A stretch of DNA of 64,000 nucleotides from Clostridia bacterium (GCA_017937065.1 JAGBEI010000018.1:21105-85104), one strand, 5' to 3'; numbered from the stretch's first letter, positions 4,826-30,826 are shown. The notes: generated by a model from the sequence alone, not told the origin. Numbers and translations: made by a program.

Positions 4826-4827
4826 TC

Positions 4828-13455: not shown

Positions 13456-13509
13456 AAGAAACCTCCCGATAAGATTACAGTTCATCATATGTCTTAACGG
13501 GAGGTCGGG

Positions 13510-14622: not shown

Positions 14623-14630
14623 ACCATCAC

Positions 14631-15953
14631 CTACGATTTATCAATATAGCTGAAGCGCGAAACGGAGAGCACGACGCCCATCTCGAACAGCAGCAGCATG
14701 AGCGACGTGCCGCCGTAGCTGAAAAACGGAAGCGTGATGCCGGTTGAGGGCAGTGCGTTTGTAACAACCGCGATATTGAGAATCGTCTGCACCGCGACAC
14801 GCCCTATTATGCCGACAACTATCAGCGAGCCGAACTTATCCCGCGCGTTGAGCGCGATATAAAAACCGCGCCATATAAGCATGACAAACAGTAATATTAA
14901 AAGCAGCGCGCCGACAAAGCCGAGCTCCTCGGCAACAATGGAAAATATATAGTCGTTTTGAGATTCGGGCAGATACAAGTGCTTTTGGCGGGACTGCCCC
15001 AGTCCCAGCCCCATCAGCCCGCCCGAACCGATAGCGTAAAGCGACTGAACAATCTGGTATCCCGCATCACCCGTATCGGAAAACGGGTCGAGCCAGATTT
15101 TTATACGCCCCGTCATATAGTCGGTGAACAGTATAAGCACCGTAAAGCCTGCGCCCGCCGCGCCCAGCGCCATAGCGAAATAGCGCAGCTGAACGCCGCC
15201 GACAAACATCATGATAGCGCCGACCGCCATTATAACGATAGCGCCCGAAAGGTGAGTCTCGATAGCGACAAGGAAAACGACGGTGCCCAGCATGATAAGC
15301 AGCGGCAGTACGCCTACCTTGAATTTATTCATGTTTTTATAGTTTGCGGAGATATAGGAGGCAAAGCTTATGACTATTGCGAACTTTCCTATCTCGGAGG
15401 GCTGGAAGCGCACGCCGAAATCAAGCCAGCGGCGCGCGTCGCCTACCGCCTTGCCGATGCCCGGAATCAAAACGAGAATGAGCAAAACGACCGAGACGCA
15501 CAGAAGCGGGAAGGCATATTTGCGCAGGCGGTGATAGTCGAAAAACGCCACGCCGAACATGACGGCTATTCCCGCAACGGCAAAAAGCAGCTGCTTTTTG
15601 ATATAGAAATAGCTGTCGCCCTCCTCGTAATAGCCGTAAACATAGCTTGCCGAGGCAACCATTATAAGCCCGAAGGCGGTGAGCACCAGCACCAGTATCA
15701 AAAACGGAATGTCTATTCTGCCGATGCTGCCCGACCTTGCGCCGCCCCTTGCGCCTTTGCGGCGCACACCTTCAGGCGGCGTCAGTGCGCCAAAGCGTCT
15801 GTCTGCAGCAGCACCCGCGCCGTTTGCGGCGGACGCGCCAAAGCGCCTGTCTGCGGCAGCACCCGCGCCGTTTGCGGCGGACGCGCCGGAAAAGCTGCGC
15901 CCGCGCGGCAGCTGTGCCCTTTCACTTGATTTTTTACGTTTAATTCCTGCCAT
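14631..15953 (-). CDS. ftsW: FtsW/SpoVE (SEDS family) peptidoglycan glycosyltransferase with an N-terminal Ala/Gly/Arg-rich extension
   Basis: 440 aa, polytopic, with the SEDS motifs PSEIGKF, LPESQNDYIFS and LPFFSYGGTS. The first 85 aa or so are low complexity and contain a 16-aa tandem duplication. Confidence 0.9.
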   Translation of the reverse strand: MAGIKRKKSSERAQLPRGRSFSGASAANGAGAAADRRFGASAANGAGAAADRRFGALTPPEGVRRKGARGGARSGSIGRIDIPFLILVLVLTAFGLIMVASASYVYGYYEEGDSYFYIKKQLLFAVAGIAVMFGVAFFDYHRLRKYAFPLLCVSVVLLILVLIPGIGKAVGDARRWLDFGVRFQPSEIGKFAIVISFASYISANYKNMNKFKVGVLPLLIMLGTVVFLVAIETHLSGAIVIMAVGAIMMFVGGVQLRYFAMALGAAGAGFTVLILFTDYMTGRIKIWLDPFSDTGDAGYQIVQSLYAIGSGGLMGLGLGQSRQKHLYLPESQNDYIFSIVAEELGFVGALLLILLFVMLIWRGFYIALNARDKFGSLIVVGIIGRVAVQTILNIAVVTNALPSTGITLPFFSYGGTSLMLLLFEMGVVLSVSRFSYIDKS

Positions 15954-15981
15954 ACTACCTCAAGTCAATTCGGATACTCGG

Positions 15982-16992
15982 TTAAATGAAATACAAAGCC
16001 TGATAAATAATTCCCCACAGCGCGGCGATACAGGCAAGCGCCGAAACCGCCGTAAACACGGCGACAATCGTTACCTCTTTCCAGCCGCACATCTCAAAAT
16101 GATGATGAATGGGAGTCATCTTGAAAATCCGCTTGCCGTGGGTCAGCTTGAAATAAGTCACCTGAAGCACGACAGACAATCCCTCTATCAAATATACTAT
16201 GCCGCCGACCAGTATAAAATACGGCATATCGTAGGACATTGCAAGAGCTGCGACAAGTCCGCCTAAAAACAGCGAGCCCGTGTCGCCCATAAAGACCTTT
16301 GCGGGGTGAAAATTATAAATCAGAAACGCGAACAGTCCGCCGACGGTGCTTGCCGCAAGCACCGCAAGACCCTCGTTGCCCTTGCCCGCCGCATTGAACA
16401 CAAGCGCGACAAATATAAACGCCGCGGCATAGGGCAGCGTCACGCTTGCCGCAAGTCCGTCCAGCCCGTCGGTCAGGTTGACCGAATTTACAAAAAAGAA
16501 CAAAAACGGAATAATCAGAATAAAATAAAAATACGAAAGGTGCAGGCTGACATTGAAAAACGGAATATACACATCGGTTGTGACATAGCCCGAAAAGTAC
16601 ATTGCCGCCACATAAAGCGTTATGGCGCCCGCAAGCATTATCGTCTTCTGACGGACGTTGAGACCCTTGTTTTGCTTGTGGGTAAACTTTGTAAAGTCGT
16701 CAATAAAGCCGATTGCACCGCAAATCAGTATAAAAAGCATCGCGTAGAGCAGGCGGTAGTCACCCGAAAAAAGGCTGCGCGCCCCCAAAATAAGCGTAAC
16801 CGCGCAAATCGGAATTATAAAGATAATTCCGCCGGCAGACGGCGTGCCCTGCTTTGACTTGTGCCACGACGGACCTATTTCCAAAATACTCTGCCCGAAT
16901 TTCAGGCGGCGAAGCCACGGAAGCACCAAAGGACCTATCACCGCGCCGAGCAGAAAGGTCAGCAGCATTGACATTATTATAACAGTATTCAT
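15982..16992 (-). CDS. mraY: Phospho-N-acetylmuramoyl-pentapeptide transferase
   Basis: 336 aa, polytopic, with NLTDGLDGLA, MGDTGSLFLGG and PIHHHFE. Confidence 0.96.
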   Translation of the reverse strand: MNTVIIMSMLLTFLLGAVIGPLVLPWLRRLKFGQSILEIGPSWHKSKQGTPSAGGIIFIIPICAVTLILGARSLFSGDYRLLYAMLFILICGAIGFIDDFTKFTHKQNKGLNVRQKTIMLAGAITLYVAAMYFSGYVTTDVYIPFFNVSLHLSYFYFILIIPFLFFFVNSVNLTDGLDGLAASVTLPYAAAFIFVALVFNAAGKGNEGLAVLAASTVGGLFAFLIYNFHPAKVFMGDTGSLFLGGLVAALAMSYDMPYFILVGGIVYLIEGLSVVLQVTYFKLTHGKRIFKMTPIHHHFEMCGWKEVTIVAVFTAVSALACIAALWGIIYQALYFI

Positions 16993-18323
16993 TTAGCCCA
17001 CTCCCCTCTGAAGTCGTTTAAAAGACCCGCCACGTTCATGCTCTGCGAGCCCTTGAACAGTATATTGTCGCCCGTTTTTACGTTTTGCATCAGAATTTTC
17101 AGCGCCTGCGCGTTATCGGCACAGTGAAAGCGGGGAACGCCGTCAAGGGCGTCATAAAGATGCCGCATTTGACTGCCGATGCAGATTACAAGCCCCACCC
17201 TCAGACTGCGGATATCGTCCGCAAGCGAGCTGTGCGCCGCCTTTGAATACTCTCCCAGCTCCAGCATATCGGCAAGCACCAGCACCTTTCTGCCGTCATA
17301 GCCGCGCATGACCTCCATTGCCGCCCTCACGGACGCGGGCGAGGCGTTATACGTGTCGTCAAAAATGCGCAGACCGCGGAACAGATAAATATTCTGACGC
17401 TGACCGTCCCCCTCAAAGGACTCAATGCCGCGTATCAGCTTTTCGGCATCGCATCCGAGTGCGAAGCCCACGGCGGCAGCAGCCAGCGCGTTATAAATAT
17501 TGTGCCTGCCCGCAACGCTCAGCGTCACGCGGTGTTTTTTCCCCAAAACAAGCATGTCAAAGCTATTATCGACAATATTCAGGGCGCGTATATCACAGTT
17601 TTCGTTTTCAATGCCGAAACGCAGGATTTTTTTTTCCGTCTTTAAGGCTTGCAGCATATCGTCGTCGCCGTTCAAAACGGCGGTGCCGCCGTCGGGCAGC
17701 GCGTCGATTATCTCGCTTTTTGCCTTCAGGATATTCTCCCGCGAGCCCAAAAGCTCTATATGCGATATTCCGATGTTGGTGATAACGGCAATATCGGGGC
17801 GGGCTATCGAGCACAGATATTCGATTTCATGGAAGCCGCGCATACCCATTTCGAGAATAACCGCATCGTCGGACGCCTCTGCGCCAAGGGCGCTGAGCGG
17901 CAGACCCAGCTCGTTGTTGCGGTTGCCCTTTGAAAAATGCACGCTCATACATTCGTTAAGCGCGGCGGCGATAAAGTTTTTTGTCGTCGTCTTGCCCACG
18001 CTGCCCGTCACCGCCACTATTTTTGCGGGAATACTTTCAAGGTGCAGTGCCGCGACATCGCCGACTGCACGGATAACGTCGCCGACAATTATATACGGGC
18101 GGCGCACGTTTTCGGGCGCCCTGTCCGTAAGATACGCAATGTTGTCCGTACTGTCAAGGTCTTTTATAAAATCAAAGCCGTCGGCGCGCGCGCCCTTGAT
18201 TGCGGCGAAAATACATCCGCTTTTAACATTGCGCGAATCGGTTTCAAGACCGTGCACGGTCATGTCCGCGCCGTGCAGCGTGCCGCCGGTACGCCCGGCA
18301 ATTTGTTTCAAAGTCAGTTTCAT
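16989..18323 (-). CDS. murF: UDP-N-acetylmuramoyl-tripeptide--D-alanyl-D-alanine ligase
   Basis: 444 aa. Mur ligase P-loop VTGSVGKTTTK; DDTYNASP is typical of MurF. There is a 4-nt overlap with mraY. Confidence 0.93.
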   Translation of the reverse strand: MKLTLKQIAGRTGGTLHGADMTVHGLETDSRNVKSGCIFAAIKGARADGFDFIKDLDSTDNIAYLTDRAPENVRRPYIIVGDVIRAVGDVAALHLESIPAKIVAVTGSVGKTTTKNFIAAALNECMSVHFSKGNRNNELGLPLSALGAEASDDAVILEMGMRGFHEIEYLCSIARPDIAVITNIGISHIELLGSRENILKAKSEIIDALPDGGTAVLNGDDDMLQALKTEKKILRFGIENENCDIRALNIVDNSFDMLVLGKKHRVTLSVAGRHNIYNALAAAAVGFALGCDAEKLIRGIESFEGDGQRQNIYLFRGLRIFDDTYNASPASVRAAMEVMRGYDGRKVLVLADMLELGEYSKAAHSSLADDIRSLRVGLVICIGSQMRHLYDALDGVPRFHCADNAQALKILMQNVKTGDNILFKGSQSMNVAGLLNDFRGEWAK

Positions 18324-19768
18324 TTATCAAGCTCTTCCATTATCTCAAGGGCAATTTTTTCTTCGTCAAAGTCAATCCTGCCCGTATTTAAAATCTGATA
18401 TTTCTCGTGGCCCTTTCCCGCAAGCAGTACAATGTCGCCGGGGCGCGCCGCGCCGATTGCGTGCCGTATCGCCTCGCGGCGGTTTTCAATAACTGTAAAG
18501 GGCGTGCGGCATTTTTTAACGCCGGGCAGAATTTCGTTTATAATATCAATCGGCGTCTCCGAGCGCGGATTGTCGGAGGTCACGATTACATAATCGGAAA
18601 GCCTTGCCGCGGTCTGCCCCATTACGGGGCGCTTTGTTCTGTCGCGGTCGCCGCCGCAGCCGAAAAGCGTTATCACCCTGCCGTCTGCCATTTCCCGCGC
18701 GGCGGACAGGATATTTTTTAGCCCGTCTGGCGTGTGCGCGTAGTCTATCATGACGGTATACGGGCGGCTGCCGCTTATAATCTGCGCCCTGCCCGGCACC
18801 GATGCAAGAGACGCCGCCGCAGGCAGAACCTCCCCGAAATCGAGTCCGAGCGCGCACACGGCGCCGATTGCAGCCAGCGCGTTAGAGACGGTAAACGTAC
18901 CGACGGAGGATACCGAAACCCTGCCTATCCCGCCTCGCGTTACGGCAAGAAAGCTGACCCCCGACGGCTTTTGCTTTATATCCTTTGCGACAAAGTCGGC
19001 AGAGTTGTACACCGCGGAATAGGTGAATTTCCTGCACGTGACGCTCCCGGCAAACTGCCGTCCCGTCTCGTCGTCGATATTTATAACCGCCGACCCTGCG
19101 CTCTCAAAAAGCTTATACTTTGCCATGCGGTAGTTTTCCATTGTTTTATGATAATCGAGATGGTCCTGCGTAAGGTTGGTAAACACCGCCGTGTCAAAGG
19201 TTATGCCGCAGACGCGCTTTTGCACAATCGAATGCGACGACACCTCCATAACGCAGTACTCAACCCCGGCGCTTACCATCTGCGACAGCAGACTGCAAAG
19301 CTCGTACGGCTCCGGCGTGGTGGCGCCCGACGGCAGCGTTTTGTCGCCTATCATGTTTGCCACGGTACCGATAAGACCTGTTTTTTTGCCCAGATTGTCA
19401 AGAATGTTTTTAATGTAATAAACGGTTGACGTCTTGCCGTTGGTGCCCGTTACGCCGACAAATTTCATTTTGCGCTCGGGATGCCCAAACCACGCGCTTG
19501 AAAGCTCAAACATGGCGCGGCGGGTATCGGGCACCGTTATGTGCGGCAGCGTGCTGTCCGTCTGCCGCTCGCAGACTATTGCCGCCGCGCCCTTTTGCTG
19601 CGCGGACAGCGCATAGTCATGCCCGTCAGCGGCGCCGCCTGTCAGACACACAAACAGGCAGCCGCCCGTAACACGGCGCGAGTCGTACACAATATCCGTT
19701 ATTTCGATGTCGGCATACGCTTTATCATACTGTGCTTCAAGCTCCGACAGCAGATCTGACAGTCTCAT
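18320..19768 (-). CDS. murE: UDP-N-acetylmuramoyl-L-alanyl-D-glutamate--2,6-diaminopimelate ligase
   Basis: 482 aa. P-loop VTGTNGKTST. The DNPR motif (TSDNPRSE) indicates a meso-DAP-adding enzyme. Confidence 0.93.
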   Translation of the reverse strand: MRLSDLLSELEAQYDKAYADIEITDIVYDSRRVTGGCLFVCLTGGAADGHDYALSAQQKGAAAIVCERQTDSTLPHITVPDTRRAMFELSSAWFGHPERKMKFVGVTGTNGKTSTVYYIKNILDNLGKKTGLIGTVANMIGDKTLPSGATTPEPYELCSLLSQMVSAGVEYCVMEVSSHSIVQKRVCGITFDTAVFTNLTQDHLDYHKTMENYRMAKYKLFESAGSAVINIDDETGRQFAGSVTCRKFTYSAVYNSADFVAKDIKQKPSGVSFLAVTRGGIGRVSVSSVGTFTVSNALAAIGAVCALGLDFGEVLPAAASLASVPGRAQIISGSRPYTVMIDYAHTPDGLKNILSAAREMADGRVITLFGCGGDRDRTKRPVMGQTAARLSDYVIVTSDNPRSETPIDIINEILPGVKKCRTPFTVIENRREAIRHAIGAARPGDIVLLAGKGHEKYQILNTGRIDFDEEKIALEIMEELDK

Positions 19769-19822
19769 AATTCCTCCGTTAATATCTGTTTGAAGCGGCG
19801 CGGACCTTTGCCGCCGCTCAGT

Positions 19823-22135
19823 TTAGTTGGATACGTCGTTGTAGTTTTTGTAATATGCGGTAATGACGGTGCCTGCCTCCACAACGGTGCCCGCCGCGGG
19901 CTCCTGCGCCGTGATAAGGGCTGTGCTCTTTGTGCTCTCGTTTCCGACGGCACGCAGGTTAAGCCCGTAGTTTGTAATCATTTTCTGCGCGCCCGCAACG
20001 CTCATCTGGGTTATGTCGGGCACGGTCACGGTGGCGGACGGCTCCCTGCCGTTTGTATACAAAACGACGGTGCCTGTGCGCGGAATAGGCGTGCCGCTCT
20101 TGGGCATCTGGTACTCAACGGTACCCTCGCCGCCCACGATTTTATACGAAAGTCCGCTTTCCTTTACTGCGGCGACCGCATCGTCGGTCGAAAGACCGGA
20201 TACGGCGGGAACGGCGGTGTCAAGGCTGTCAAGCTCCTCGTCTGTATACTTGGGGGTTATCTCAAGATAGGGCAGTACGTCGGACAGGATTTTGCCCGCC
20301 GTCGGCGCGGCGGTAAGACCGCCGAAATACTCCGAGCCGCTCGGCTCGTCAAGCATGACAAGAATGGCAATCTGCGGGTCGTCTGCCGGCGCAAAGCCGA
20401 TAAACGACGCGATATACTCCTCCTCGCCCGTCGAGCTCTCGGTTGCCAGCTTTTCCGATGTACCCGTTTTGCCCGCAACGCGGTAGCCCTTGACATACGC
20501 GTTTTTGCCCGAACCCGTTTTGACCGCGTCCGCCAAAAGCGCACACATCTTTTCCGACGTCTCCTTGGAGATTACCTGGCGCTTTACGCCGCTCTCTATA
20601 CTCTTGACAACGGTGGTCTTGCCGTTTTCATCGGTAGAGGTTATCTCCTTTACAACGTGCGGCGTCACAAGCGTGCCGCCGTTGGCAACCGCCGCGACGG
20701 CGGTCAGCATCTGAATGGGCGTGACCTTAAAGCGCTGTCCGAAAGACGCCGTTGCAAGCTCCACCTCGTTAAAGCTCGAATCGCTGTGGAAAATGCCGGT
20801 TGCCTCGCCCGCAAGGTCTATGCCCGTTTTTTCGGTGAGACCGAAGTTTTTAAAATAGCTTTTGAATGTAGTATTGCCTATCCGCGCGCCTATCATCATA
20901 AAGGCGGGGTTGCAGGAATTGTTTATTGTCTGCGGAAAGTTCTGCGAGCCGTGACCGCCGTGCTTCCAGCAGCTTATGCGGCGGTTGCCCACCACAAAAT
21001 AGCCGGGGCAGTAAAACGAATCGCTGTCGCTCACAAGATTTTCCTCCACCGCCATTGACGCCGTAAGTATCTTGAAGGTGGAGCCGGGCTCATAGGTATC
21101 GACTATGAGCTTGTTTCTGCGCATGAGGTTTGTAAGCTCGGTTTTCTTTTCGTCGAGTGTCTTTTCCGTTTCGCTTTGCGTATCGTCTGCGTTTTCGCCG
21201 TCCGCCGCGGTTTGCTCCGCTTTGTCCGTATCGGATGCCGTACTGCCCGACGGGCTTTCAAAAAGCTCAAGCTCCGAAAGCAGCAGCTTGTCGGTTATCT
21301 GCTGATAGTTGTTGAGGTCGTAGTCGGGCTTTGAGGTGATGCCCAAAAGCCCGCCCGTTTTAACGTCCATAATCATGGCGGCGGCGCCGTTTAAGCACTT
21401 GAAGTCCTCGCGCGCCTGCTCGATGTGCTTTTCAAGGTAATACTGCACCGTTGAGTCTATCGTGAGCCTGATATCGTTTCCGTCCTTGGCGGGCACATAG
21501 GTCTCATATTCGACGGGAAGCTCGCTGCCCGCATTGTTTTTCGCGGTTATAAGCTTTCCGTTTGTGCCCTGAAGATAGCTGTTGTACATAAGCTCGATAC
21601 CGTCAAGCCCCACGTTGTCGGTGCCCGTAAAGCCGATAATGTGCGACGCCAGATTGTTATACGGATAGTAGCGCTTGGTATCGTCTATAAGGTGTATGCC
21701 CGTCGCCTTGCTCTCGGATATGTAGTCGCGCACCTTGTCGGCAACGTCGCTTTCAATCTTGCGCTTTACTATCTCGTAATAGTTGTTTTTCTGCGTCTTG
21801 GCATACACCGTGTCGTAATCGACGCCCAAAATCTCGGAGAGATTTTTTGCCACGTCGTGCGCGTCCTCGTCGTCAATGTTTTTGGGGGATATATATACGG
21901 TTTTGACGTCGGACGACACGGCAAGCTCGACGCCGTTGCAGTCGGTGATGCTGCCGCGCTTTGCGTTTATCGTCGTATTCATTGTCTGCTGAGCTATTGC
22001 CCTGGACTGATAAACGTCATAATTTATTATCTGATAATAGACGAGAAAGCCGATTATTACACACACGGCGGCAAAAAGCACTGCCATAAGCGCCAGGGCT
22101 CTGTTTTTCATTTTCTTGGTGGGTGTCTTTGCCAT
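19823..22135 (-). CDS. Class B penicillin-binding protein (FtsI/PBP2B/SpoVD type) with two C-terminal PASTA domains
   Basis: 770 aa. It has an N-terminal TM helix, a PBP dimerisation region, the transpeptidase motifs STFK, SCN and KTGT, and two PASTA-like repeats at the C-terminus. Confidence 0.93.
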   Translation of the reverse strand: MAKTPTKKMKNRALALMAVLFAAVCVIIGFLVYYQIINYDVYQSRAIAQQTMNTTINAKRGSITDCNGVELAVSSDVKTVYISPKNIDDEDAHDVAKNLSEILGVDYDTVYAKTQKNNYYEIVKRKIESDVADKVRDYISESKATGIHLIDDTKRYYPYNNLASHIIGFTGTDNVGLDGIELMYNSYLQGTNGKLITAKNNAGSELPVEYETYVPAKDGNDIRLTIDSTVQYYLEKHIEQAREDFKCLNGAAAMIMDVKTGGLLGITSKPDYDLNNYQQITDKLLLSELELFESPSGSTASDTDKAEQTAADGENADDTQSETEKTLDEKKTELTNLMRRNKLIVDTYEPGSTFKILTASMAVEENLVSDSDSFYCPGYFVVGNRRISCWKHGGHGSQNFPQTINNSCNPAFMMIGARIGNTTFKSYFKNFGLTEKTGIDLAGEATGIFHSDSSFNEVELATASFGQRFKVTPIQMLTAVAAVANGGTLVTPHVVKEITSTDENGKTTVVKSIESGVKRQVISKETSEKMCALLADAVKTGSGKNAYVKGYRVAGKTGTSEKLATESSTGEEEYIASFIGFAPADDPQIAILVMLDEPSGSEYFGGLTAAPTAGKILSDVLPYLEITPKYTDEELDSLDTAVPAVSGLSTDDAVAAVKESGLSYKIVGGEGTVEYQMPKSGTPIPRTGTVVLYTNGREPSATVTVPDITQMSVAGAQKMITNYGLNLRAVGNESTKSTALITAQEPAAGTVVEAGTVITAYYKNYNDVSN

Positions 22136-22235
22136 GGTTTTCTCCGTCTTTCTTAAAATTTGTCAAAATTAAAACAAGAGCGGGCAAGTAATCTGTTAAA
22201 AAAGAACCTCCCGCTCTAATAATATTTATTACACG

Positions 22236-22628
22236 TCAGTTCAAATATTCATAAAGAATATTGAAGCTGCTCACAACTCCGTCCAAAAACGACTTTTTTT
22301 CCTTTTCGGGCGCAATCTCAACCGTATCGCTGTCAGCGAGATTTACAGTATGAATACGAAAGGCTTCCAGCTTGACCATGCCCAGCTGTTCCGTAGCGAT
22401 CTGCTCAATGCTGGCAAGCGAGTTTTTGCGGTCAATCTCAACGCACAGCACCGAATTGCGGGCGTTCAGCTCGTCCAGCTCCTTCTTTTTGCCGGCAGAG
22501 CTTAAGGTGAGCTCGTTGAGCGAGATGTAACCGTTAAGCACAAATGCCGCGAGCAGAACGCAGACTGCCGACACACAGAATGTGAACGGAGATAAATATT
22601 TTCTTTTGGTAGTCTTTGTTTTTTTCAT
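22236..22628 (-). CDS. ftsL: Cell division protein FtsL-like (bitopic, coiled coil)
   Basis: 130 aa with a single TM helix followed by a coiled-coil segment. It sits in the canonical position between rsmH and the PBP gene. The call rests on position and architecture only. Confidence 0.7.
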   Translation of the reverse strand: MKKTKTTKRKYLSPFTFCVSAVCVLLAAFVLNGYISLNELTLSSAGKKKELDELNARNSVLCVEIDRKNSLASIEQIATEQLGMVKLEAFRIHTVNLADSDTVEIAPEKEKKSFLDGVVSSFNILYEYLN

Positions 22629-22647
22629 GTTCCCCTTATTTCCCCTT

Positions 22648-23586
22648 TTAGATTTTTTCCGCCACTCTCAGCTTTGCGGGCTTTGAGCGGTTGTTTTCAC
22701 TCAGTTCCTTTTCGTCCGCCGTCACGGGCTTGTGCGTTATCAGCTTCATTGTCGCCTTTCTGCCGCAAACGCAGACGGGAATGTTTTTATTGCAGACGCA
22801 GCCCGTTGCCATGTCCTTTAACGTATTTTTTACTATTCTGTCCTCCAGCGAATGAAAGGTCATCACCGCAAGTCTGCCGCCCGGCTCTAAAAGCCCCGCC
22901 GCGTCGCGTATCGCCTGCTCCAAAATTTTGAGCTCGCCGTTCACCTCAATGCGCAGCGCCTGATAGGTGCGCTTGGACGGGTGCTTTTCACCGTAGCGCT
23001 CAGAGGGAGGAAACGCGCGCTTTATGATATCGTTGAGCTGAAACGTCGTTTCAATCGGCGCCTTTTCCCGCGCGCGGCAGATTTGATAAGCTATTTTGTC
23101 GGCGCGGCGCTCCTCGCCGTATTCATATAAAATCCTTGCAAGCTCACGCTGAGAACAGCCGTTTACTATATCCCTTGCGCTGACGCTGTCCTCCCGCGAC
23201 ATGCGCATATCAAGCGGCGCGTCAAAGCGATAGGAAAAGCCGCGCTGCGCGTTGTCAAGCTGGTAGCTTGAAACGCCCAGGTCAAACAGCACGCCGCTTA
23301 CCCTGTCGGCGCCCGACTGCAAAACGGCGGTTTTTATATCCTTAAAGTTTGCATGCACAAGCCGCACCGAGGATTTATACCTTTCAAGCCGCTGTGACGC
23401 CGCGCGTATCGCGTCCGCGTCGCGGTCTATTCCGATAAGCAAGCCGCCCTCAAGCCGCTTTGCTATCTCCTCGCTGTGCCCGCCGCCGCCCAGCGTACAG
23501 TCAACATACACACCGTCCGGCTTGATATTCAAAGCGTCCGTACAGCGATCACGCATAACGCTGTAATGAGAAAATTCCGTACCCAT
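22648..23586 (-). CDS. rsmH: 16S rRNA (cytosine1402-N4)-methyltransferase
   Basis: 312 aa with HYSVM, YVDCTLGGGGHS and DLGVSSYQLD, the MraW/RsmH signature. Confidence 0.96.
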   Translation of the reverse strand: MGTEFSHYSVMRDRCTDALNIKPDGVYVDCTLGGGGHSEEIAKRLEGGLLIGIDRDADAIRAASQRLERYKSSVRLVHANFKDIKTAVLQSGADRVSGVLFDLGVSSYQLDNAQRGFSYRFDAPLDMRMSREDSVSARDIVNGCSQRELARILYEYGEERRADKIAYQICRAREKAPIETTFQLNDIIKRAFPPSERYGEKHPSKRTYQALRIEVNGELKILEQAIRDAAGLLEPGGRLAVMTFHSLEDRIVKNTLKDMATGCVCNKNIPVCVCGRKATMKLITHKPVTADEKELSENNRSKPAKLRVAEKI

Positions 23587-24005
23587 TATAAGATAAGCTC
23601 GTCCATACAGGCGACGATTGAATCGCTGTCAAGCATATTCTGAGAAGCCTCCCAGCGCTCCGGCGTCCAAATCTCTATCATATCGCCGTTTCCCACTAAA
23701 ACGACCTCGTTTTCAACGCCGATTTTCTGCCGAAGCTGCTGCGGAATCTGCATTCTGCCCTGCTTGTCCGTCGCAACCTCATGCATACTGCCCAGAAAAA
23801 AGCGCTTTATCCAGCGAACCTTTGAAGGCGGCGCGCTGTCAAACCTTGAAAGAAACTTCTCCCACTCGGTCTGCGACATCACCATCAGCGTGTCGTCGTA
23901 GCCCGCGGTAATAACAAACTCCAGCCCGAGCTCCTTTTTGAATTTTGCGGGCATTACCACCCTGCCCTTTTCATCAACGGTATGCGTATATGTTCCCCCG
24001 AGCAC
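23586..24005 (-). CDS. mraZ: Transcriptional regulator MraZ
   Basis: 139 aa. Duplicated SpoVT-AbrB halves (VDEKGRVVMPAKFKKEL and TDKQGRMQIPQQLRQKI), a GTG start preceded by AAAGGTGGTGA, and first position in the dcw cluster. Confidence 0.95.
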   Translation of the reverse strand: MLGGTYTHTVDEKGRVVMPAKFKKELGLEFVITAGYDDTLMVMSQTEWEKFLSRFDSAPPSKVRWIKRFFLGSMHEVATDKQGRMQIPQQLRQKIGVENEVVLVGNGDMIEIWTPERWEASQNMLDSDSIVACMDELIL

Positions 24006-24243: not shown

Positions 24244-24272
24244 TTTACAATTTTCCTGTTTGAAAATATACT
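24244..24272 (+). promoter_or_regulatory. Putative promoter of the GRE operon (TTTACA-17 nt-TATACT)
   Basis: -35 at 24244-24249 and -10 at 24267-24272, about 25 nt upstream of the ATG at 24298. Confidence 0.45.
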
Positions 24273-24297
24273 CATTCTGAAAGGCGGTGTCAGACCG

Positions 24298-26280
24298 ATG
24301 AAAGAGATATATGATTTTATAACACAGAAAAAGCACCTGAAATACAGGCGCTGCCTGGACATTAATTTAGCGGAGGAATTTTGCGGGCAAAAGCTTTGCG
24401 CCAAGGAGAGAGTAACCCGCAGGTTTGAGCTGATGTGCAGAGAGGAACTCCCCGTAATACTTCCGGGTGAAAAAATATGTTTTACCCGCACTGTGGGAAA
24501 TCTGCCCGACGTATACACAAAGGCGGAACGCGATGAGATGAAAAGAGGCGCCAGAATGCCGGAGGGCGGCGCGATATCAAACCTCACGCCCGACTACGCA
24601 AGGATAATGACGACGGGCTTTGACGCGCTGAGGGACACGCTTGACAGCTACGGACAGCGGGAAATCGACGCAATTTTATATCTTGTGTCAAAATACCGCG
24701 ATGAGGCTTTAAAGCAGCAAAACACCGAGCTTGCGGAAATTCTTGAGCGTGTTCCGCGGCAGAGTCCGCGCACCTTCCGCGAGGCACTCCAGTTTTTCAG
24801 AATAATACACTTTGCCTGTATTCTGGACGGCTGCCACCATGTGACACTGGGCAGGTTTGACAAGTATATGTACCCCTACTATAAGGCGGATATTAATTAC
24901 GGAAAGCTGACGGAGGATAAGGCATATGACCTCATACGCGAGTTTTTCCTGTCATTCAACAAGGATTCGGATATATATTCGTGCGTACAGCTGGGCGACA
25001 ACGGGCAGAGCATGGTGCTGGGCGGCAGCGACGGAAACGGCGGCGAGATTTTCAACGAGCTGACGGTGCTTGCGCTGCGCGCCTCACGCGAGAACATGCT
25101 GATTGACCCGAAAATCAACCTGCGGGTATCGTCCAAAACCCCGCTCGAAGTATTTATAAAAGGCACCGAGCTTACGCGCGCGGGGCTGGGCTTTCCGCAG
25201 TATTCAAACGACGATATCGTAATCCCCGCCCTTACCGAAATGGGCTACGACAGGGCGGACGCCGAGGATTACGTCGTCGCCGCCTGCTGGGAATTCATAA
25301 TCCCCGGTCACGGCGCCGACATTCCGAATATCGCCGTCATGCCGTTTGCCGACGTCATAAATACAGTACTCCACCGTGATTTGAAAAGCTGCACGGATTT
25401 TGAGCAGTTCAAGGAATGCGTCAAAAAGGAAATCGGGAATATCGCGGATACGATAGACAACCGGCTAAAACGCATAAAGTATCTGCCGTCGCCGTTCATG
25501 AGCGCCATGCTCGGAGAAGGGGACGTGTCGGAGGGCGGAAAATACAACAACTTCGGTATTCACGGCGCAGGCATTGCGACTGCCGCCGATTCGCTGACGG
25601 CAATTAAAAAATATGTATTTGACGAAAAATCCGTGACGGCGGATGAGCTTATTAACGCTGTGGACAATGATTTTGAGGGCAGCGGCGAGCTGCTGCACAG
25701 GCTGCGCTACGAAACCCCCAAGCTGGGGCAAAACGACAGCGAGGCGGACGACATGGCGGTATTTTTACTGAATTCGTTTGCAAAAGCGCTGTCGGGGAGA
25801 GTAAACTCACGCGGCGGTATTTACCGCGCAGGCACGGGCACCGCTATGGAATATCTGTCCGTCAAAAATATCCCCGCCTCCCCCGACGGCAGACGGCGGG
25901 GCGAGCCGCTGGGGACAAATTACTCGCCGAGTCTTTTTGCGAAAATAAACGGCCCCATGTCCGTTATACGGTCATTTACAAAGCCCGACCTCAAAAAGAC
26001 CTGCAACGGCGGACCGCTGACCCTGGAATTTCACGCGGGGATATTTGACAGCGAAGATGCTGTCAGAAAAACGGCGGAGCTTGTAAAATCATACATAGAC
26101 ATGGGCGGACATCAGCTGCAGCTCAACGCGGTAAATGTAAAGGCACTGAAAGAGGCGCAGAAAAATCCGCAGGACTACAAAAACCTCATTGTGAGAATAT
26201 GGGGCTGGAGCGCATATTTCACAGAGCTTGACAAACCGTACCAGGATCATGTAATATCAAGGCAGGAATACACGGTATGA
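24298..26280 (+). CDS. Glycyl radical enzyme, PFL2/dehydratase-like, compact (660 aa), substrate unknown
   Basis: The C-terminal glycine loop is LIVRIWGWSAYFTEL (Gly codon 26203-26205). The Cys loop AACWEF has a C-x-E arrangement (Cys 25285-25287, Glu 25291-25293). A GRE activase follows directly. The start is taken as ATG 24298 (MKEIYDF), downstream of AAAGGCGG; the track ORF begins at 24235. Confidence 0.88.
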   Translation: MKEIYDFITQKKHLKYRRCLDINLAEEFCGQKLCAKERVTRRFELMCREELPVILPGEKICFTRTVGNLPDVYTKAERDEMKRGARMPEGGAISNLTPDYARIMTTGFDALRDTLDSYGQREIDAILYLVSKYRDEALKQQNTELAEILERVPRQSPRTFREALQFFRIIHFACILDGCHHVTLGRFDKYMYPYYKADINYGKLTEDKAYDLIREFFLSFNKDSDIYSCVQLGDNGQSMVLGGSDGNGGEIFNELTVLALRASRENMLIDPKINLRVSSKTPLEVFIKGTELTRAGLGFPQYSNDDIVIPALTEMGYDRADAEDYVVAACWEFIIPGHGADIPNIAVMPFADVINTVLHRDLKSCTDFEQFKECVKKEIGNIADTIDNRLKRIKYLPSPFMSAMLGEGDVSEGGKYNNFGIHGAGIATAADSLTAIKKYVFDEKSVTADELINAVDNDFEGSGELLHRLRYETPKLGQNDSEADDMAVFLLNSFAKALSGRVNSRGGIYRAGTGTAMEYLSVKNIPASPDGRRRGEPLGTNYSPSLFAKINGPMSVIRSFTKPDLKKTCNGGPLTLEFHAGIFDSEDAVRKTAELVKSYIDMGGHQLQLNAVNVKALKEAQKNPQDYKNLIVRIWGWSAYFTELDKPYQDHVISRQEYTV

Positions 26281-27098
26281 CATACGGGACTGTATTCGAT
26301 ATACGCGAGTTTACGGTGCATGACGGCCCCGGTGCGAGAGTTACGGTGTTTTTAAAGGGCTGTCCCCTGCGCTGCCGCTGGTGCCACAACCCCGAGGGAC
26401 TGCCGCCCGCGCCCCAGCTCATGATACGTGAAAGCGCCTGCACCCGCTGCGGTGCGTGCAGGGTGAAATGCTCTCACAGCGAATGCCAGCCGTTTTCACG
26501 GTGCCTGCACGCCTGTCCGTCGGGACTGATTACGCTGTGCGGAGAGCGGTTTTCATCAGACGAGCTTGCAAAAAGGCTTTCAGGCTACGCTCCGTTTTTA
26601 AAAAACGGCGGCGTAACCTTTTCGGGCGGCGAGCCGCTGATGCAGCATGAATTTCTGAGCGAGCTTTTAACAAAAACCCGCCCTCTCCACCGCGCGATAG
26701 AGACAAGCGGCTATGCGCCGCAACGCATTTTCAGAGAGATTGCGGGGCTGTGCGACCTTGTGATAATGGATTTAAAGCTTGCCGACAGGGAGCAGCACAA
26801 AAAATACACGGGCGTATACAACGATGTCATACTGAAAAACCTGCAATATCTTCAGCAAAGCGGCAGGGAGCACATCATACGCATACCGCTGATACCCGAA
26901 ATCACCGACACAAAACAGAACCTGCTCGCCGCGGCAGAGCTTGCGGGCGACTCGCAGGTGGAGCTTTTGAGATACAACAGGGCGGCGGGCGCAAAATACG
27001 AAACGGTGGGGAAAAAATACACACTTGACGGACTTTCGGCACAGGGAGAGCAGGCTCTCCCCGATATTTCAATATTCAGAAAGGCTAAAATACTATGA
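26277..27098 (+). CDS. Glycyl-radical enzyme activating protein (radical SAM)
   Basis: 273 aa. It has the FTVHDGPGAR motif, the radical SAM cluster CPLRCRWCHN, a ferredoxin-like CTRCGACRVKC insert, and GGEPL. There is an ATGA overlap with the GRE stop. Confidence 0.93.
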   Translation: MTYGTVFDIREFTVHDGPGARVTVFLKGCPLRCRWCHNPEGLPPAPQLMIRESACTRCGACRVKCSHSECQPFSRCLHACPSGLITLCGERFSSDELAKRLSGYAPFLKNGGVTFSGGEPLMQHEFLSELLTKTRPLHRAIETSGYAPQRIFREIAGLCDLVIMDLKLADREQHKKYTGVYNDVILKNLQYLQQSGREHIIRIPLIPEITDTKQNLLAAAELAGDSQVELLRYNRAAGAKYETVGKKYTLDGLSAQGEQALPDISIFRKAKIL

Positions 27099-29113
27099 AC
27101 GCAATGAAAATACACTCCGCGTTTGCGACCACTGAAAAGGGCAGAGAGCAAATCACGCCCGAGCTCATACAGACCGAAAAAGGCGGGCTTACCGCCGTGC
27201 GGCTGAAGTTTGAAAGCGAGCTGCCGCTTGACAAATTCAGCGGCATAGAGCTGCTGCTTGAGCCGTGCAGGGCAGACGGCTTTACCGCAATTTACCGCCA
27301 CAGTGAATTCTGGTGCAGACCGGCGTTCTGCCAAAGCGCGCAGCAAATTCCGCCAGACACGCAGTGCCTTTTGTGGCAGGGCGGCTGCCTGCTGCCCGTG
27401 TGCGGCGACAAATATCTGTGCATGGTATCGGGAACGCCGGACGGATATATAAAGCTGACGCTGAACACCTTCTGCTCAGGCATCAGGGAGTGCGACACGA
27501 CGGCATTCGTTTTGGGCGAGGGCGAAAACGTGCATGCTCTTATCGCCGACTGCGCCCGGCTTGCGCTTGAGGTGATGGATTCCGACACGCCGCTGCGGGA
27601 AAGCAGGCGCTATCCCGAAATTTTCGAATATCTGGGCTGGTGCAGCTGGGATGCGTTTCATATTGAGGTATCGGAGCAGAAGCTATTGCAAAAGTGCGAC
27701 GAGTTCAGCGAAAAAAACATCCCCGTCAGATGGGCGATAATAGACGACATGTGGGCGGACACGCCGGGAATTGAACAAGCGGCGGGCAAGGAGCGGGGCG
27801 AAATGATGCGCATTATGCACTCCTGCCGTCTGAGCTCGTTCAAAGCCGACAAAACGCGCTTTCCCGACGGATTGGACGGGTGTATAGAAAAGCTGCACGC
27901 GCGCGGGCTTTACGTCGGAATGTGGCACCCGACAACGGGATACTGGAGCGGGATTGCGGAAGACGGACAAATCGCACGCGACATGCCGCAGGCGCTTATA
28001 AAAACACACAGATACAGCGCAAAGCGCGCCGAATACAGCGAAAGCGAGCAGCTCGTTCACGCGCCCGACTACGAGAGTGCAAGGACGTTTTACGAGAGCT
28101 TTCACGCATATCTCAAGGACTGCGGCGCGGATTTTATAAAGGTGGACAACCAGAGCTTCACACATTCGTTCTATCACGATGTAATGCCCGTAGGGCAGGC
28201 GGCTGAAAATCTGCACCGCGCCGTTGACGGCTCGGCGGAAAAATTCTTTGACGGAGCGCTGATAAACTGCATGGGCACGTCGGCGGAAAACATGTGGCAC
28301 CGCCCGCAAAGCTGCGTGTCAAGGTGCAGCGACGACTTCCTGCCGGAAAACCGCGACTGGTTTACAAAGCACATTCTGCAATGCTCGTTCAACAGCATGG
28401 TACAGGGCGTGTTTCACGTCTGCGACTGGGACATGTGGTGGACGGACGACACGCAGGCGGTGAAAAACTCGGTTCTGCGCGCCGTCAGCGGCGGGCCGAT
28501 ATACGTCAGCGACACTTTGGGGCGCAGCAGGCGGGAGATACTCATGCCGCTTTGTCTTGAGGACGGCAGAATACTCAGGTGCGACAAGCCTGCCGTGCCG
28601 CTTTTAAAATGCGTATTTCAAAACCCCGAAAGCTGCAAGGCGCCGTTTATGCTTCAAAGCACGGCGAACGGCTGCGCGTATGTCGCGGCGTTTAACCTTG
28701 ACGGTGAAAATGCCGCCGTATGCTCGGATTTTTCGCCGCGGGACATTGACGGGCTCTGCGGCGACAGCTTTGTACTGTACGAATATTTCACAAACAGCGC
28801 AACGACCGTGAAAGCGGATGAGAAAATCACGGTCGCGCTTGCAGACCGCGACGAATTCAGACTGTACGCGCTGATACCCGAAAAGGAAATCACGTTTTTG
28901 GGGCTTTGCGGCAAGATGATTGCAGCAAAAACACTGTCGGATATCACCCCGGACAGCGCGGTGAGCGCGCAGGGCGGAGAGCTCATGTTTTTCAGTCAAA
29001 AGGAAGTGACGGCGGTTTACTCTGACGGCAAGCCCGCAGAATTTACAAAAGACGGGGCGCTGTACAAAGCAAGCGCCGGTCGCGGCAAAATAACGGTATG
29101 CACAGAGGAATAA
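27095..29113 (+). CDS. Sip1/raffinose-synthase family protein (GH36-clan alpha-glycosidase/transglycosidase-like)
   Basis: 672 aa. The motifs GWCSWDAF, IIDDMW, FIKVDNQ, CDWDMWW and SGGPIYVSD match the hallmark blocks of plant raffinose synthase and seed imbibition proteins. There is an ATGA overlap with the activase stop. Confidence 0.75.
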   Translation: MNAMKIHSAFATTEKGREQITPELIQTEKGGLTAVRLKFESELPLDKFSGIELLLEPCRADGFTAIYRHSEFWCRPAFCQSAQQIPPDTQCLLWQGGCLLPVCGDKYLCMVSGTPDGYIKLTLNTFCSGIRECDTTAFVLGEGENVHALIADCARLALEVMDSDTPLRESRRYPEIFEYLGWCSWDAFHIEVSEQKLLQKCDEFSEKNIPVRWAIIDDMWADTPGIEQAAGKERGEMMRIMHSCRLSSFKADKTRFPDGLDGCIEKLHARGLYVGMWHPTTGYWSGIAEDGQIARDMPQALIKTHRYSAKRAEYSESEQLVHAPDYESARTFYESFHAYLKDCGADFIKVDNQSFTHSFYHDVMPVGQAAENLHRAVDGSAEKFFDGALINCMGTSAENMWHRPQSCVSRCSDDFLPENRDWFTKHILQCSFNSMVQGVFHVCDWDMWWTDDTQAVKNSVLRAVSGGPIYVSDTLGRSRREILMPLCLEDGRILRCDKPAVPLLKCVFQNPESCKAPFMLQSTANGCAYVAAFNLDGENAAVCSDFSPRDIDGLCGDSFVLYEYFTNSATTVKADEKITVALADRDEFRLYALIPEKEITFLGLCGKMIAAKTLSDITPDSAVSAQGGELMFFSQKEVTAVYSDGKPAEFTKDGALYKASAGRGKITVCTEE

Positions 29114-29116
29114 GGC

Positions 29117-29716
29117 ATGAACGAAATCATAAAGCACTACGACCTGTTAATCGCAGAAGACAACGACCCGGTTCATGACCCAGCGCCGCTGCGCGCGTAC
29201 ATGAACAAGTGGGACGGCGCGGCTTTCATAAACGCACTGGGGCTGACGCATGACAAAAGCGTGCTGGAAATAGGAGTCGGCACGGGCAGGCTGGCGCTCA
29301 GATGCGCGCCGATGTGCAAGAACCTTACCGGCATTGACTTTTCACCCGAAACGGCACGCCGCGCAAGGCAAAACCTTGCGCACTGCAAAAATGTGAAAAT
29401 CATCTGCGCCGATTTTTACAAATATGAATTTCAAGACCGGTACGACATTATTTACAGCTCGCTGACCTTTCTGCATTTTCAGGACAAAAAGACCGCCGTA
29501 AATAAAATTGCCCGGCTGTTGAAGCCGGGCGGAAAAGCGGTTTTGTCCCTTGACAAATCGCAGAAAAAAGAATTGGACACGGGTACGCGCAAAATACCCC
29601 TCTATCCCGATAACCCTGATGAAATAACCGAGCTTTTGCGGGAGTCGGGGCTTGAAATCACACTTAAAACACAGACAGAATACGCATATATCTTAGCGGC
29701 AGACTGCCCCGTATAA
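29117..29716 (+). CDS. Class I SAM-dependent methyltransferase (small-molecule type)
   Basis: 199 aa. Motif I is VLEIGVGTGRLA, followed by GIDFSPE and LLKPGG. It starts 3 nt after the upstream stop, and GAGGAA serves as the RBS. Confidence 0.85.
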   Translation: MNEIIKHYDLLIAEDNDPVHDPAPLRAYMNKWDGAAFINALGLTHDKSVLEIGVGTGRLALRCAPMCKNLTGIDFSPETARRARQNLAHCKNVKIICADFYKYEFQDRYDIIYSSLTFLHFQDKKTAVNKIARLLKPGGKAVLSLDKSQKKELDTGTRKIPLYPDNPDEITELLRESGLEITLKTQTEYAYILAADCPV

Positions 29717-29742
29717 ACAATACGGGGCAGCCGTTTCATTTT
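29704..29742 (+). terminator. Putative terminator of the GRE operon
   Basis: The hairpin CTGCCCCGTA-loop(7)-TACGGGGCAG spans the stop codon and is followed by CCGTTTCATTTT. Confidence 0.55.
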
Positions 29743-29751: not shown

Positions 29752-30747
29752 TCAGCTGCCGTCATAGCTATCTTTTATCTTTTGTATGTATTCGATAAAC
29801 TCGTCCTTTACATCGCGCGGCGCCTGTATTTTGATTTTGTCGCCCAGACCGCAAAGCCACGCGAAAAACTGCGGACTCACCTGCACGGAGGCGGTAAAGG
29901 TGAAGGTGTCCTCCCCCGGAACCGTCATAATATCCCTCCCGAAGCGGTCGATAACCGCGCCCGCAAGCCGATTGTCGCAGCACAGGGTCACATTCCGCTC
30001 TCTCCCGCCGAACATGCCGAATACCTTTTTGGTATACTGCGCCGCGTCAAAGTCTGAAAAGCCGCCGGGCAGCTTTCTTGACCGCCCTGTACAGCGGATA
30101 TCCTGCATTTTATCCACACGGTAATGCTTGATTTTGTTTTCGCTTGCGTCAAACGCTATGAGGTAGTAGTTTTCATCGTCCCAGCTGAGCGCAAGCGGAC
30201 TCACCGTATACAAAGCTCCGCCGCGGCGCAGCGCCTTTGTGCGGCGCGGCGTCCACTCAAAGTAGTGAAAGCTGATGGCGCGGTTTGCGACAATGCCTTC
30301 GTTCACGGCGTCTACGTTATAGTAAATTGTTTCGTTCATCGTTTTTATGCGCCCGCGGACAAACACCTGACCGTGCAGTCCGCGCGCCTCATTGACGCTT
30401 GCAAGCGACTCTAACTTTTTAATAAGCTCATCAGTCTTTTTTTCGGTGATGAATTTGGAGGACTGGACGGCGTCCACAAGCAGCTTGAGCTCAGGCAGCT
30501 CAAACTCGCGGGACATCAGTCTGTACTCGCTGTGTCCGCCCGCGCGCACCGTCTCGATATCGGCTCCGTAAACGTCGCGCAGCAGCGCGATATCCTCATA
30601 CACCGATTTGCGCTCGGCGGCTATATCAAGGGCGGCAAGCCTTTCTATTATCTGCCGCATGGATATGCCGTGGCTGAAATCGGTTTCGCGCTTTAAGATG
30701 TCATAGAGATAAAGTATTTTCAGCTTCTGATTGCGGGATTTGGACAT
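29752..30747 (-). CDS. WYL domain-containing transcriptional regulator (N-terminal wHTH)
   Basis: An N-terminal HTH segment (LKILYLYDILKRETDFSHGISMRQIIERL) and a WYL-domain core (YTVSPLALSWDDENYYLIAFDASENKIKHYRVDKM). The start is taken as ATG 30747, downstream of AAAGGTGGG. Confidence 0.85.
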   Translation of the reverse strand: MSKSRNQKLKILYLYDILKRETDFSHGISMRQIIERLAALDIAAERKSVYEDIALLRDVYGADIETVRAGGHSEYRLMSREFELPELKLLVDAVQSSKFITEKKTDELIKKLESLASVNEARGLHGQVFVRGRIKTMNETIYYNVDAVNEGIVANRAISFHYFEWTPRRTKALRRGGALYTVSPLALSWDDENYYLIAFDASENKIKHYRVDKMQDIRCTGRSRKLPGGFSDFDAAQYTKKVFGMFGGRERNVTLCCDNRLAGAVIDRFGRDIMTVPGEDTFTFTASVQVSPQFFAWLCGLGDKIKIQAPRDVKDEFIEYIQKIKDSYDGS

Positions 30748-30826
30748 ACAAGCCCACCTTTTTGTCATTTTAAACAAATTTTACAATTAAAATTGCCGCA
30801 AGTCAACATAAAATCATAAATAGATA

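Follow-up and report, generated by a model that had tools for sequence, protein, structure and literature searches.

The operon and its signals

The window analysed here is a 64,000-nucleotide stretch of DNA from a Clostridia bacterium (GCA_017937065.1, JAGBEI010000018.1:21105-85104). Its subject is an operon in which a glycyl radical enzyme (GRE) and its activase are encoded together with a Sip1/raffinose-synthase-type protein of glycoside hydrolase (GH) family 36, hereafter the Sip1-like protein, and a methyltransferase dependent on S-adenosylmethionine (SAM). The coupling of the GRE and Sip1-like genes is confirmed in many distant genomes. In the window, the listing of open reading frames (ORFs) contains four consecutive ORFs on the plus strand between 24298 and 29716, which are accompanied by the following features:

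24244-24272, plus strand: promoter-like site TTTACA-17-TATACT, matching the consensus at 10 of 12 positions, 26 nt 5' of the GRE start codon
24298-26280, plus strand: compact GRE of the C-x-E type, 660 aa, with PFL-like and Gly_radical domains
25279-25296, plus strand: Cys loop AACWEF of the GRE, from residue 328 (Cys330, Glu332), placed by alignment to glycerol dehydratase
26194-26220, plus strand: Gly loop RIWGWSAYF of the GRE, from residue 633 (Gly636), placed by alignment to solved GREs
26277-27098, plus strand: radical-SAM GRE activase, 273 aa (TIGR02494)
27095-29113, plus strand: GH36 protein of the Sip1/raffinose synthase type, 672 aa (PF05691)
28139-28153, plus strand: KVDNQ of the Sip1-like protein, from residue 349 (K349 and the predicted nucleophile D351), placed by alignment to AtAkalphaGal3
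28322-28339, plus strand: RCSDDF of the Sip1-like protein (R410 and the predicted acid/base D414), placed by alignment to AtAkalphaGal3
29117-29716, plus strand: class I SAM-dependent methyltransferase, 199 aa (Methyltransf_11/25)
29704-29742, plus strand: hairpin terminator, stem at 29704-29730 with 11 bp (7 G-C pairs) and a 5-nt loop, followed by a T-rich tail

The initial annotation had read these genes as one unit, and all four ORFs, the ATGA stop/start overlaps between GRE and activase (26277-26280) and between activase and Sip1-like gene (27095-27098), and the gap of 3 nt from the Sip1-like stop to the methyltransferase start (TAA-GGC-ATG) are present as it described, as are all motifs that it quoted from the GRE and the Sip1-like protein. 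The genes of the operon are translationally coupled. The ORF listing begins the GRE at GTG 24235; the likeliest start is ATG 24298, which has GAAAGGCGG just upstream, and public gene calls use the same 660-aa protein.

Both expression signals that had been proposed for the operon were likewise recovered. The scanned region of 6.1 kb contains 15 promoter-like sites where 4.9 are expected, about three times the number in shuffled sequences, and the site at 24244-24272 is for this reason a candidate promoter only. The 292-bp intergenic region also carries divergent promoter-like sites on the mraZ side. The terminator hairpin overlaps the stop codon of the methyltransferase gene and faces a convergent WYL regulator gene. 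No known RNA element or riboswitch was found in or near the operon by Rfam, whose sole match in the window is RNase P.

The compact glycyl radical enzyme and its activase

Profile searches returned the families that the initial annotation had pointed to. The GRE matches PFL-like (PF02901, E 1e-87) and Gly_radical (PF01228, E 7e-18), the activase matches TIGR02494 with 247 bits against a cut-off of 174, and the Sip1-like protein matches Raffinose_syn. At the same time the GRE stays below the cut-off of every NCBIfam equivalog, as illustrated by the following scores:

TIGR01774 (PFL2/glycerol dehydratase subfamily): 315 bits, cut-off 678
HypD (NF043068): 299 bits, cut-off 1100
CutC: 246 bits, cut-off 1050
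Pyruvate formate-lyase (PFL; TIGR01255): 80 bits, cut-off 994

Glycerol dehydratase (GD) is the top sequence match among the structures in the PDB; the other best matches are HypD, PflD, CutC and propanediol dehydratase (PD), all with 20-25% identity and over an alignment that spans only the part of the protein from about residue 111-135 onward. An AlphaFold2 (AF2) model of the GRE (pLDDT 83, pTM 0.85) superimposes on GRE eliminases and isomerases with template modelling (TM) scores of 0.85-0.88, normalised to the query, and a fold-match probability of 1.00, and no solved GRE structure stands out as close to it. A close grouping with an already characterised GRE, which the initial annotation had named as evidence against its proposal, is not seen in these searches.

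In the alignment with GD the motif C330-W-E332 falls on C433-V-E435, and it does not vary among 20 homologues, in agreement with the initial assignment of a C-x-E loop where PFL has a Cys-Cys pair. The Gly loop RIWGWSAYF is matched to RVAGYSA in solved GREs, and R633 to A639 are invariant in the same number of homologues. A C-x-E loop defines the GRE 1,2-eliminases and isomerases in a 2026 review of the superfamily (PMC13450708). Judged from its sequence, the enzyme is of this eliminase/isomerase type and has its radical machinery (Gly636, Cys330, Glu332) intact.

The residues expected to handle the substrate are a different matter. Ser282, Tyr339 and Asp447 of GD presumably have such roles, and Asp278 of HypD is taken by us to bind the amine of its substrate. 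His164 of GD is the proton donor (PMC13450708). The correspondences below, like those given later for the Sip1-like protein, derive from HMMER alignments at about 25% identity together with the AF2 model:

GD His164: invariant Asn95 in the compact GRE
GD Ser282: invariant His181
GD Tyr339: Gly236
GD Asp447: Asn344
HypD Asp278: Tyr or His180 (register offset by a 20-residue tag)

An identity as glycerol or propanediol dehydratase was rejected on the replacement of the GD residues and the shortfall against TIGR01774, and an identity as HypD on the score against NF043068 and the loss of D278. The sites are lined by invariant residues of polar, uncharged character, among them the invariant loop Q231-G-D-N-G-Q-S238, in which model confidence is low. 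From this lining we infer a neutral, hydroxyl-rich substrate.

The compact size is not a peculiarity of the window. A search with the N-terminal 135 residues alone matched 236 clusters among 1.84 billion representatives (clusters at 50% identity), and every match longer than 600 aa among those listed measured 617-689 aa, so that the short architecture is evidently a property of a clade and not a truncation. Its sequence places the GRE in a distinct clade of compact enzymes, about 620-690 aa long, from Clostridia of the gut and rumen, with relatives in at least 589 species genomes (profile scan, one genome per GTDB species). Most carriers belong to the Acutalibacteraceae, Oscillospiraceae, Lachnospiraceae or unclassified Clostridia of human, mouse, chicken and ruminant guts; cultured carriers include Ructibacterium gallinarum DSM 107454 and strain 1xD8-48. 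The best-scoring 80 loci of this set, at 53-76% identity, form the sample of species loci used below; their genes were called by a crude longest-ORF procedure.

The activase carries its CX3CX2C motif as CPLRCRWC at residues 29-36 and a Cys-rich, ferredoxin-like insert from residue 55. It adjoins the GRE in about 72 of the 80 species loci.

The Sip1-like protein

The third protein matches Raffinose_syn (PF05691) with E 2e-52 and 178.5 bits against a cut-off of 20, in addition to weak matches to GH31 and Melibiase, and contains GWCSWDAF (residue 181), IIDDMW (215), KVDNQ (349), DWDMWW (444) and SGGPIYVSD (465). Its initial assignment to the raffinose synthase/seed imbibition family can therefore be upheld. 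The sole strong relative of solved structure is AtAkalphaGal3 of Arabidopsis (PDB 7exf; E 4e-48, or 4e-83 with a profile), and the AF2 model (pLDDT 91) superimposes on 7exf and 7exh over all three domains with TM scores of 0.84-0.86.

According to the structure paper, the -1 subsite of AtAkalphaGal3 is built from D243, D244, W307, K381, the nucleophile D383 (mutated in 7exg), R443 and the acid/base D447, and its +1 subsite from K75, W78, D446 and Y449. In the Sip1-like protein D217, D218, K349, D351, R410 and D414 correspond to D243, D244, K381, D383, R443 and D447 and are invariant in 22 homologues, the motif RCSDDF aligning with R443-A-S-D-D447. The catalytic aspartates, on which the initial annotation had made its reading depend, are in place. 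W78 of the WW box is kept as W73, and the +1 side is otherwise altered, with Ser70 for K75, Phe72 (Tyr in most relatives) for W77 and Leu416 for Y449. The WW box (FRSK-x-WW), which together with Tyr449 binds the sucrose, raffinose or galactinol moiety, reads YRHSE-Y/F-WC in the Sip1-like family, and a raffinose or stachyose synthase function does not fit these residues. The protein is a credible alpha-galactosidase, with a standard galactose site at -1 and an aglycone site unlike that of the raffinose and galactinol enzymes.

We also considered a beta-L-arabinopyranosidase specificity, which would unify the Sip1-like protein with the GH51, GH127 and GH42 partners found in other genomes, and set it aside as undecidable from sequence; in the light of work on GH27, the retained Asp-Asp pair presumably favours galactose. 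Inspection by eye, with no predictor run, revealed no N-terminus resembling a signal peptide, and the enzyme should accordingly act on imported small glycosides.

Conservation of the GRE/Sip1 pairing

A Sip1-like gene lies within 10 kb of the compact GRE in 16 of the 80 species loci, a count that speaks for the locus and not for the rest of each genome. With one to three randomly placed Sip1-like copies assumed in a genome of 2.5 Mb, the binomial probability of such linkage is 5e-18 to 8e-11. In a neighbour-joining tree the linked loci are scattered over the whole compact GRE clade, in at least 10 separate places, and their gene orders vary: Sip1-GRE-activase-LacI, LacI-GRE-activase-Sip1, GRE-activase-DUF4867-HAD-Sip1 and GH31-GH88-like-GH94-GRE-activase-Sip1 all occur.

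The reverse direction was assessed in the best-scoring 80 of 296 metagenome loci with Sip1-like genes, recognised by the motifs [CP]DWDMWW and YLGWCSWD. A compact GRE (at least 44% identity) stands beside the Sip1-like gene in 28 of these 80 loci, in 19 of the 42 with at least 8 kb of flanking sequence, and in 16 of the 38 that remain after dereplication at 90% nucleotide identity. One further locus with such flanks (L155) has only a distant GRE of 24% identity. Conservation in both directions indicates that the pairing is real, that it is old or recurrent, and that it is unusually tight from the side of the glycosidase. The trio of GRE, activase and Sip1-like protein, whose co-conservation the initial annotation had made a test of its proposal, is hence recovered from either end.

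Some loci hold additional genes. In an Acetatifactor metagenome-assembled genome (L066:6509-19453), an activase, a 766-aa GRE, a 679-aa GRE and an activase lie side by side and are followed by the Sip1-like gene, an unannotated 787-aa protein and GH31; the 766-aa GRE groups with the compact GREs in BLAST clustering. In three large loci with several glycosidases (L054, L074, L091) the gene directly 5' of the Sip1-like gene, at about 2.3-4.2 kb of each locus, encodes a conserved protein that has about 633 aa and matches nothing in Pfam, in the order GH29, 633-aa protein, Sip1, DUF4886, AraC, GH36, GRE.

Other genes near the GRE

The neighbours in the 80 species loci were clustered and representatives annotated with Pfam, which gave the following frequencies:

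AraC-type regulator, mostly divergent: 23 of 80 loci
Sip1-like: 16 of 80
LacI: 10 of 80
GH36 Melibiase: 8 of 80
DUF4867: 6 of 80
GH51 alpha-L-arabinofuranosidase: 5 of 80
GH29 fucosidase: 5 of 80
NrdD: 5 of 80
GH31: 2 of 80

Scattered among the loci are further enzymes (GH3, GH28, GH78, GH88, GH94-like, trehalase-like, GDSL, DUF4886 and SASA esterases, HAD phosphatases) and ABC solute-binding proteins. Where the Sip1-like protein is missing, its place is taken in other genomes by enzymes of GH51, GH36 (melibiase), GH29 or GH31 and by AraC/LacI regulators. Two minimal units recur: LacI-GRE-activase-Sip1 (L031, L032, L086, L092), and a regulator followed by GRE, activase and GH51, the regulator being AraC in L024, L056 and L073 and LacI in L048. 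A common version in Lachnospiraceae comprises GH78, an ABC transporter, GH127, LacI, GRE, activase and GH42. The shared theme of these neighbourhoods is the cytoplasmic processing of plant-glycan fragments.

A downstream enzyme or transporter common to the operons, sought as a clue to the substrate, did not emerge: the partners are a mixed set of HAD phosphatases, esterases (GDSL, DUF4886), epimerases, AKR and SDR proteins and assorted glycosidases. DUF4867 was given up as a clue, this metal-binding cupin having been proposed, and not demonstrated, to isomerise or open sugar rings (PMC11968277).

Genes are occasionally inserted between GRE and activase, namely the DUF4867 cupin in L091 (11993-12643) and a GDSL-type esterase in L044, L052 and L061, which suggests accessory proteins of the same functional unit. 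In one subclade (L020, L021, L057, L059) the compact GRE and its activase adjoin nrdD and nrdG of the class III ribonucleotide reductase; this adjacency may reflect shared anaerobic regulation rather than a shared function.

The product of the fourth gene of the operon matches Methyltransf_11 (PF08241, E 5e-21) and Methyltransf_25 (PF13649, E 2e-20) and reaches no specific NCBIfam model. Outside the window, just one of the 80 species loci, that of a 76%-identical relative, combines it with the trio. In L095, a close relative of the window operon with a Sip1 identity of 78%, GRE, activase and Sip1 are followed directly by convergent genes, and the methyltransferase is absent from all distant trios as well. 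Homologues of 54-60% identity are widespread in Clostridia, some of them fused to GNAT acetyltransferase domains, and the two homologue contexts examined were both unrelated (an Asp/Glu racemase with an AAA kinase, and small ORFs). We interpret the methyltransferase as a co-transcribed, lineage-specific passenger and have dropped it as an enzyme of the pathway; the initial suggestion that it modifies or detoxifies a product is not supported.

Surroundings of the operon in the window

The operon sits between a divergent dcw cluster and the convergent WYL/WCX regulator gene, and core chromosome makes up the remainder of the 64 kb. The dcw cluster is complete and occupies about 10100-24005 on the minus strand (mraZ, rsmH, ftsL-like, a penicillin-binding protein, murE, murF, mraY, ftsW, murG, murA-like, a POTRA protein, ftsZ); mraZ, which ends at 24005, is its gene nearest the operon. 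The 76%-identical relative has the GRE operon in the same slot between mraZ and the WYL regulator. The regulator gene itself (29752-30777, minus strand) has a conserved place beside the operon in none but the closest relatives, at 88% identity, whereas most other loci of the clade have an AraC or LacI regulator.

Elsewhere the window contains:

199-3771: SMC gene
3833-6877, minus strand: three tandem M42-family peptidase paralogues, between the SMC gene and a Mur ligase gene with a MurD-like N-terminal domain (weak match)
8413-8755, plus strand: RNase P RNA of class A, full-length, 277 bits
42278-44134 and 44305-46023, plus strand: tandem Sulfatase (PF00884) paralogues of about 570-620 aa, at a guess lipoteichoic acid synthases of the LtaS type
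50046-58316, minus strand: cluster for glycogen metabolism, with genes for glycogen phosphorylase and synthase, a branching enzyme and two subunits of ADP-glucose pyrophosphorylase

Proposed function and alternative explanations

We lean towards a reading in which GRE, activase and Sip1-type GH36 protein constitute a conserved cytoplasmic module for carbohydrate catabolism, with the GRE acting on a neutral sugar or polyol supplied by the glycosidase. In such a module the Sip1-like protein would be a retaining alpha-galactosidase or transgalactosylase, with D351 as nucleophile and D414 as acid/base on the strength of their conservation. As the neighbourhoods suggest, it would cleave an imported small alpha-galactoside and so supply or free the neutral sugar or polyol for the GRE. 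In other genomes GH51, GH36 and further glycosidases may make the GRE substrate available.

The radical chemistry can be sketched from related enzymes. By homology, the [4Fe-4S] cluster bound by the CX3CX2C motif of the activase would act with SAM to abstract a hydrogen from Gly636, and the resulting glycyl radical would generate a thiyl radical on Cys330. By analogy with other C-x-E GREs, this thiyl radical would abstract a hydrogen from a carbinol carbon of the substrate (PMC13450708). If the enzyme follows its family further, Glu332 would deprotonate the hydroxyl to give a ketyl radical, which would expel a vicinal C-O leaving group (water, or else an ether or ring oxygen), and return of the hydrogen would yield a deoxy-carbonyl product (PMC13450708).

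Several substrates are conceivable for the GRE. D-galactose and L-arabinose are both candidates, being galacto-configured and of the same configuration. L-arabinose is a possible product of GH51, GH127 and GH42 enzymes and also the aglycone of Gal-alpha-1,3-Ara. Cyclitols (inositols) from galactosides of the galactinol type are further candidates, as are, by analogy with YbiW and PflD, anhydro-sugars. Glycerol from galactosylglycerols appears disfavoured because the residues of glycerol dehydratase are lost. An alpha-galactoside of a polyol as the substrate of the operon, an idea of the initial annotation, is speculation.

Several observations weigh against a carbohydrate module of this kind. 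About 80% of the compact-GRE loci in the species sample have no Sip1-like gene within 10 kb. Partners with different glycones (galactose, L-arabinofuranose, L-fucose) replace the Sip1-like protein, so that a single shared substrate is hard to name, and the variety of glycosidases complicates any simple handover of the aglycone to the GRE. No kinase, aldolase or dehydrogenase is conserved downstream, the largest family accounting for 4 of the 97 further operon proteins. Finally, the window contains no sugar transporter, and neither an AraC nor a LacI gene adjoins the operon.

Rather unlikely, in our judgement, though the strongest of the alternatives, is that GRE and activase form an autonomous dehydratase of diols or polyols such as 1,2-propanediol or glycerol, which serves as a redox valve or detoxifier and is merely co-located with glycoside genes, the Sip1-like protein being an ordinary alpha-galactosidase of the raffinose/melibiose type. 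Many loci indeed consist of a regulator, GRE and activase alone (AraC occurs in 23 and LacI in 10 of the 80), and the partner glycosidases are variable. Fucose and rhamnose catabolism leads to 1,2-propanediol, and some large loci combine the GRE with GH29, fucose isomerase, a class II aldolase and GH78. The position of glycerol dehydratase as best sequence match in the PDB points the same way. However, N95, H181, G236 and N344 stand where GD and PD have the residues that handle their substrates, and no genes for a microcompartment shell or for aldehyde or alcohol dehydrogenases were seen among the annotated neighbours. Moreover, about 42-45% of the Sip1-like subfamily is encoded directly beside a GRE, which is far tighter than loose co-regulation predicts.

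It is also conceivable by analogy, if improbable, that the GRE attacks a glycoside or anhydro-sugar itself, for example by radical beta-elimination of a glycosidic or ether oxygen, as YbiW and PflD do with 1,5-anhydro-alditol phosphates. The Sip1-like protein would in this case take the preceding or the following step, perhaps making or consuming a 1,5-anhydro- or deoxy-keto sugar as a lyase or hydrolase. PflD gives the highest TM score to the GRE model (0.88), and GH31 alpha-glucan lyases, which belong to clan D as does the Sip1-like protein, make 1,5-anhydrofructose. YbiW and PflD are C-x-E GRE isomerases that cleave a C-O bond of the sugar ring (PMC13450708), and DUF4867, the proposed ketose ring isomerase (PMC11968277), adjoins the GRE in 6 of the 80 loci. 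Set against this are the standard galactose -1 subsite of the Sip1-like protein, from whose sequence a lyase cannot be told from a hydrolase, the lack of identified phosphate-binding residues, and the fact that no kinase, phosphotransferase system (PTS) genes or conserved reductase were seen. That the GRE is a pyruvate formate-lyase in a coincidental neighbourhood, as its name in public records would have it, has next to no probability, given the single Cys of the C-W-E loop, the 80 bits against a TIGR01255 cut-off of 994, and the place of PFL structures among its weakest GRE matches (E 8e-21).

Returning to the carbohydrate module, we put forward as a more tentative extension that the compact GRE clade cleaves a C-O bond by an unprecedented radical reaction, its substrate being a sugar, cyclitol or glycoside that is not phosphorylated and is provided by a dedicated GH36 subfamily. 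The clade might, for instance, dehydrate a galacto-configured aldose or an aglycone of the inositol or polyol kind, or open an ether or glycosidic bond.

Comparison with known systems and implications

The compact GRE resembles the GRE 1,2-eliminases (GD 1r8w, PD 5i2g, HypD 6vxc, CutC 5fau) in its fold (TM 0.85-0.86), the position of the Gly loop, the single Cys within C-x-E and a dedicated radical-SAM activase of the TIGR02494 type. In contrast to them it is about 130-190 residues shorter (660 vs 787-849 aa), mostly at the N-terminus, has Trp between Cys and Glu as well as on both sides of the radical Gly, and is tied genomically to glycosidases, with no microcompartment genes among the annotated neighbours. 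To our knowledge, no characterised GREs other than YbiW and PflD (8id7, 8id0) have carbohydrate substrates. These two share the C-x-E loop with the compact GRE, and PflD is its best structural match; nevertheless the identity is only 20-24%, and the E. coli enzymes use phosphorylated substrates, being C-O lyases for 1,5-anhydroglucitol-6-phosphate and 1,5-anhydromannitol-6-phosphate (PMC13450708). The compact GRE, in turn, has no conserved kinase or PTS nearby, and its conserved partner is a glycoside hydrolase.

With AtAkalphaGal3 (7exf) the Sip1-like protein shares the three-domain architecture, the motifs of the nucleophile (KxD) and of the acid/base (RxxDD), W78, and the Asp-Asp pair with the Lys and Arg of the galactose -1 subsite. 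It differs in its sequence (20% identity in the structural alignment) and its altered +1 subsite, and it is bacterial, presumably cytoplasmic and, in about 42-45% of its subfamily, encoded beside a GRE.

We found no publication, GRE papers since 2024 included, that links a GRE to raffinose synthase, GH36 or alpha-galactosidase or that describes this clade, and the catalogue of eliminases and isomerases in the 2026 review lists no such enzyme (PMC13450708). Where public records carry names, they call the GRE 'pyruvate formate-lyase' and the Sip1-like protein 'alpha-galactosidase'. What is new here is the compact C-x-E architecture, the make-up of the active site and the conserved partnership with glycoside hydrolases.

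The reactions of only a few dozen GREs are known, and every addition to their number has brought to light a further anaerobic pathway of gut microbes, as for choline to trimethylamine, hydroxyproline, isethionate and anhydroglucitol. The conserved glycosidase partner narrows the search for the substrate of the compact GRE to compounds that alpha-galactosides and plant glycosides related to them release. A functional coupling would make this the first pathway in which a GRE is linked with a glycoside hydrolase and, after YbiW and PflD, the second case of radical chemistry on sugars. Should the proposed radical C-O cleavage prove true, it would represent a new anaerobic route of carbohydrate use that is widespread in the Clostridia of gut and rumen.

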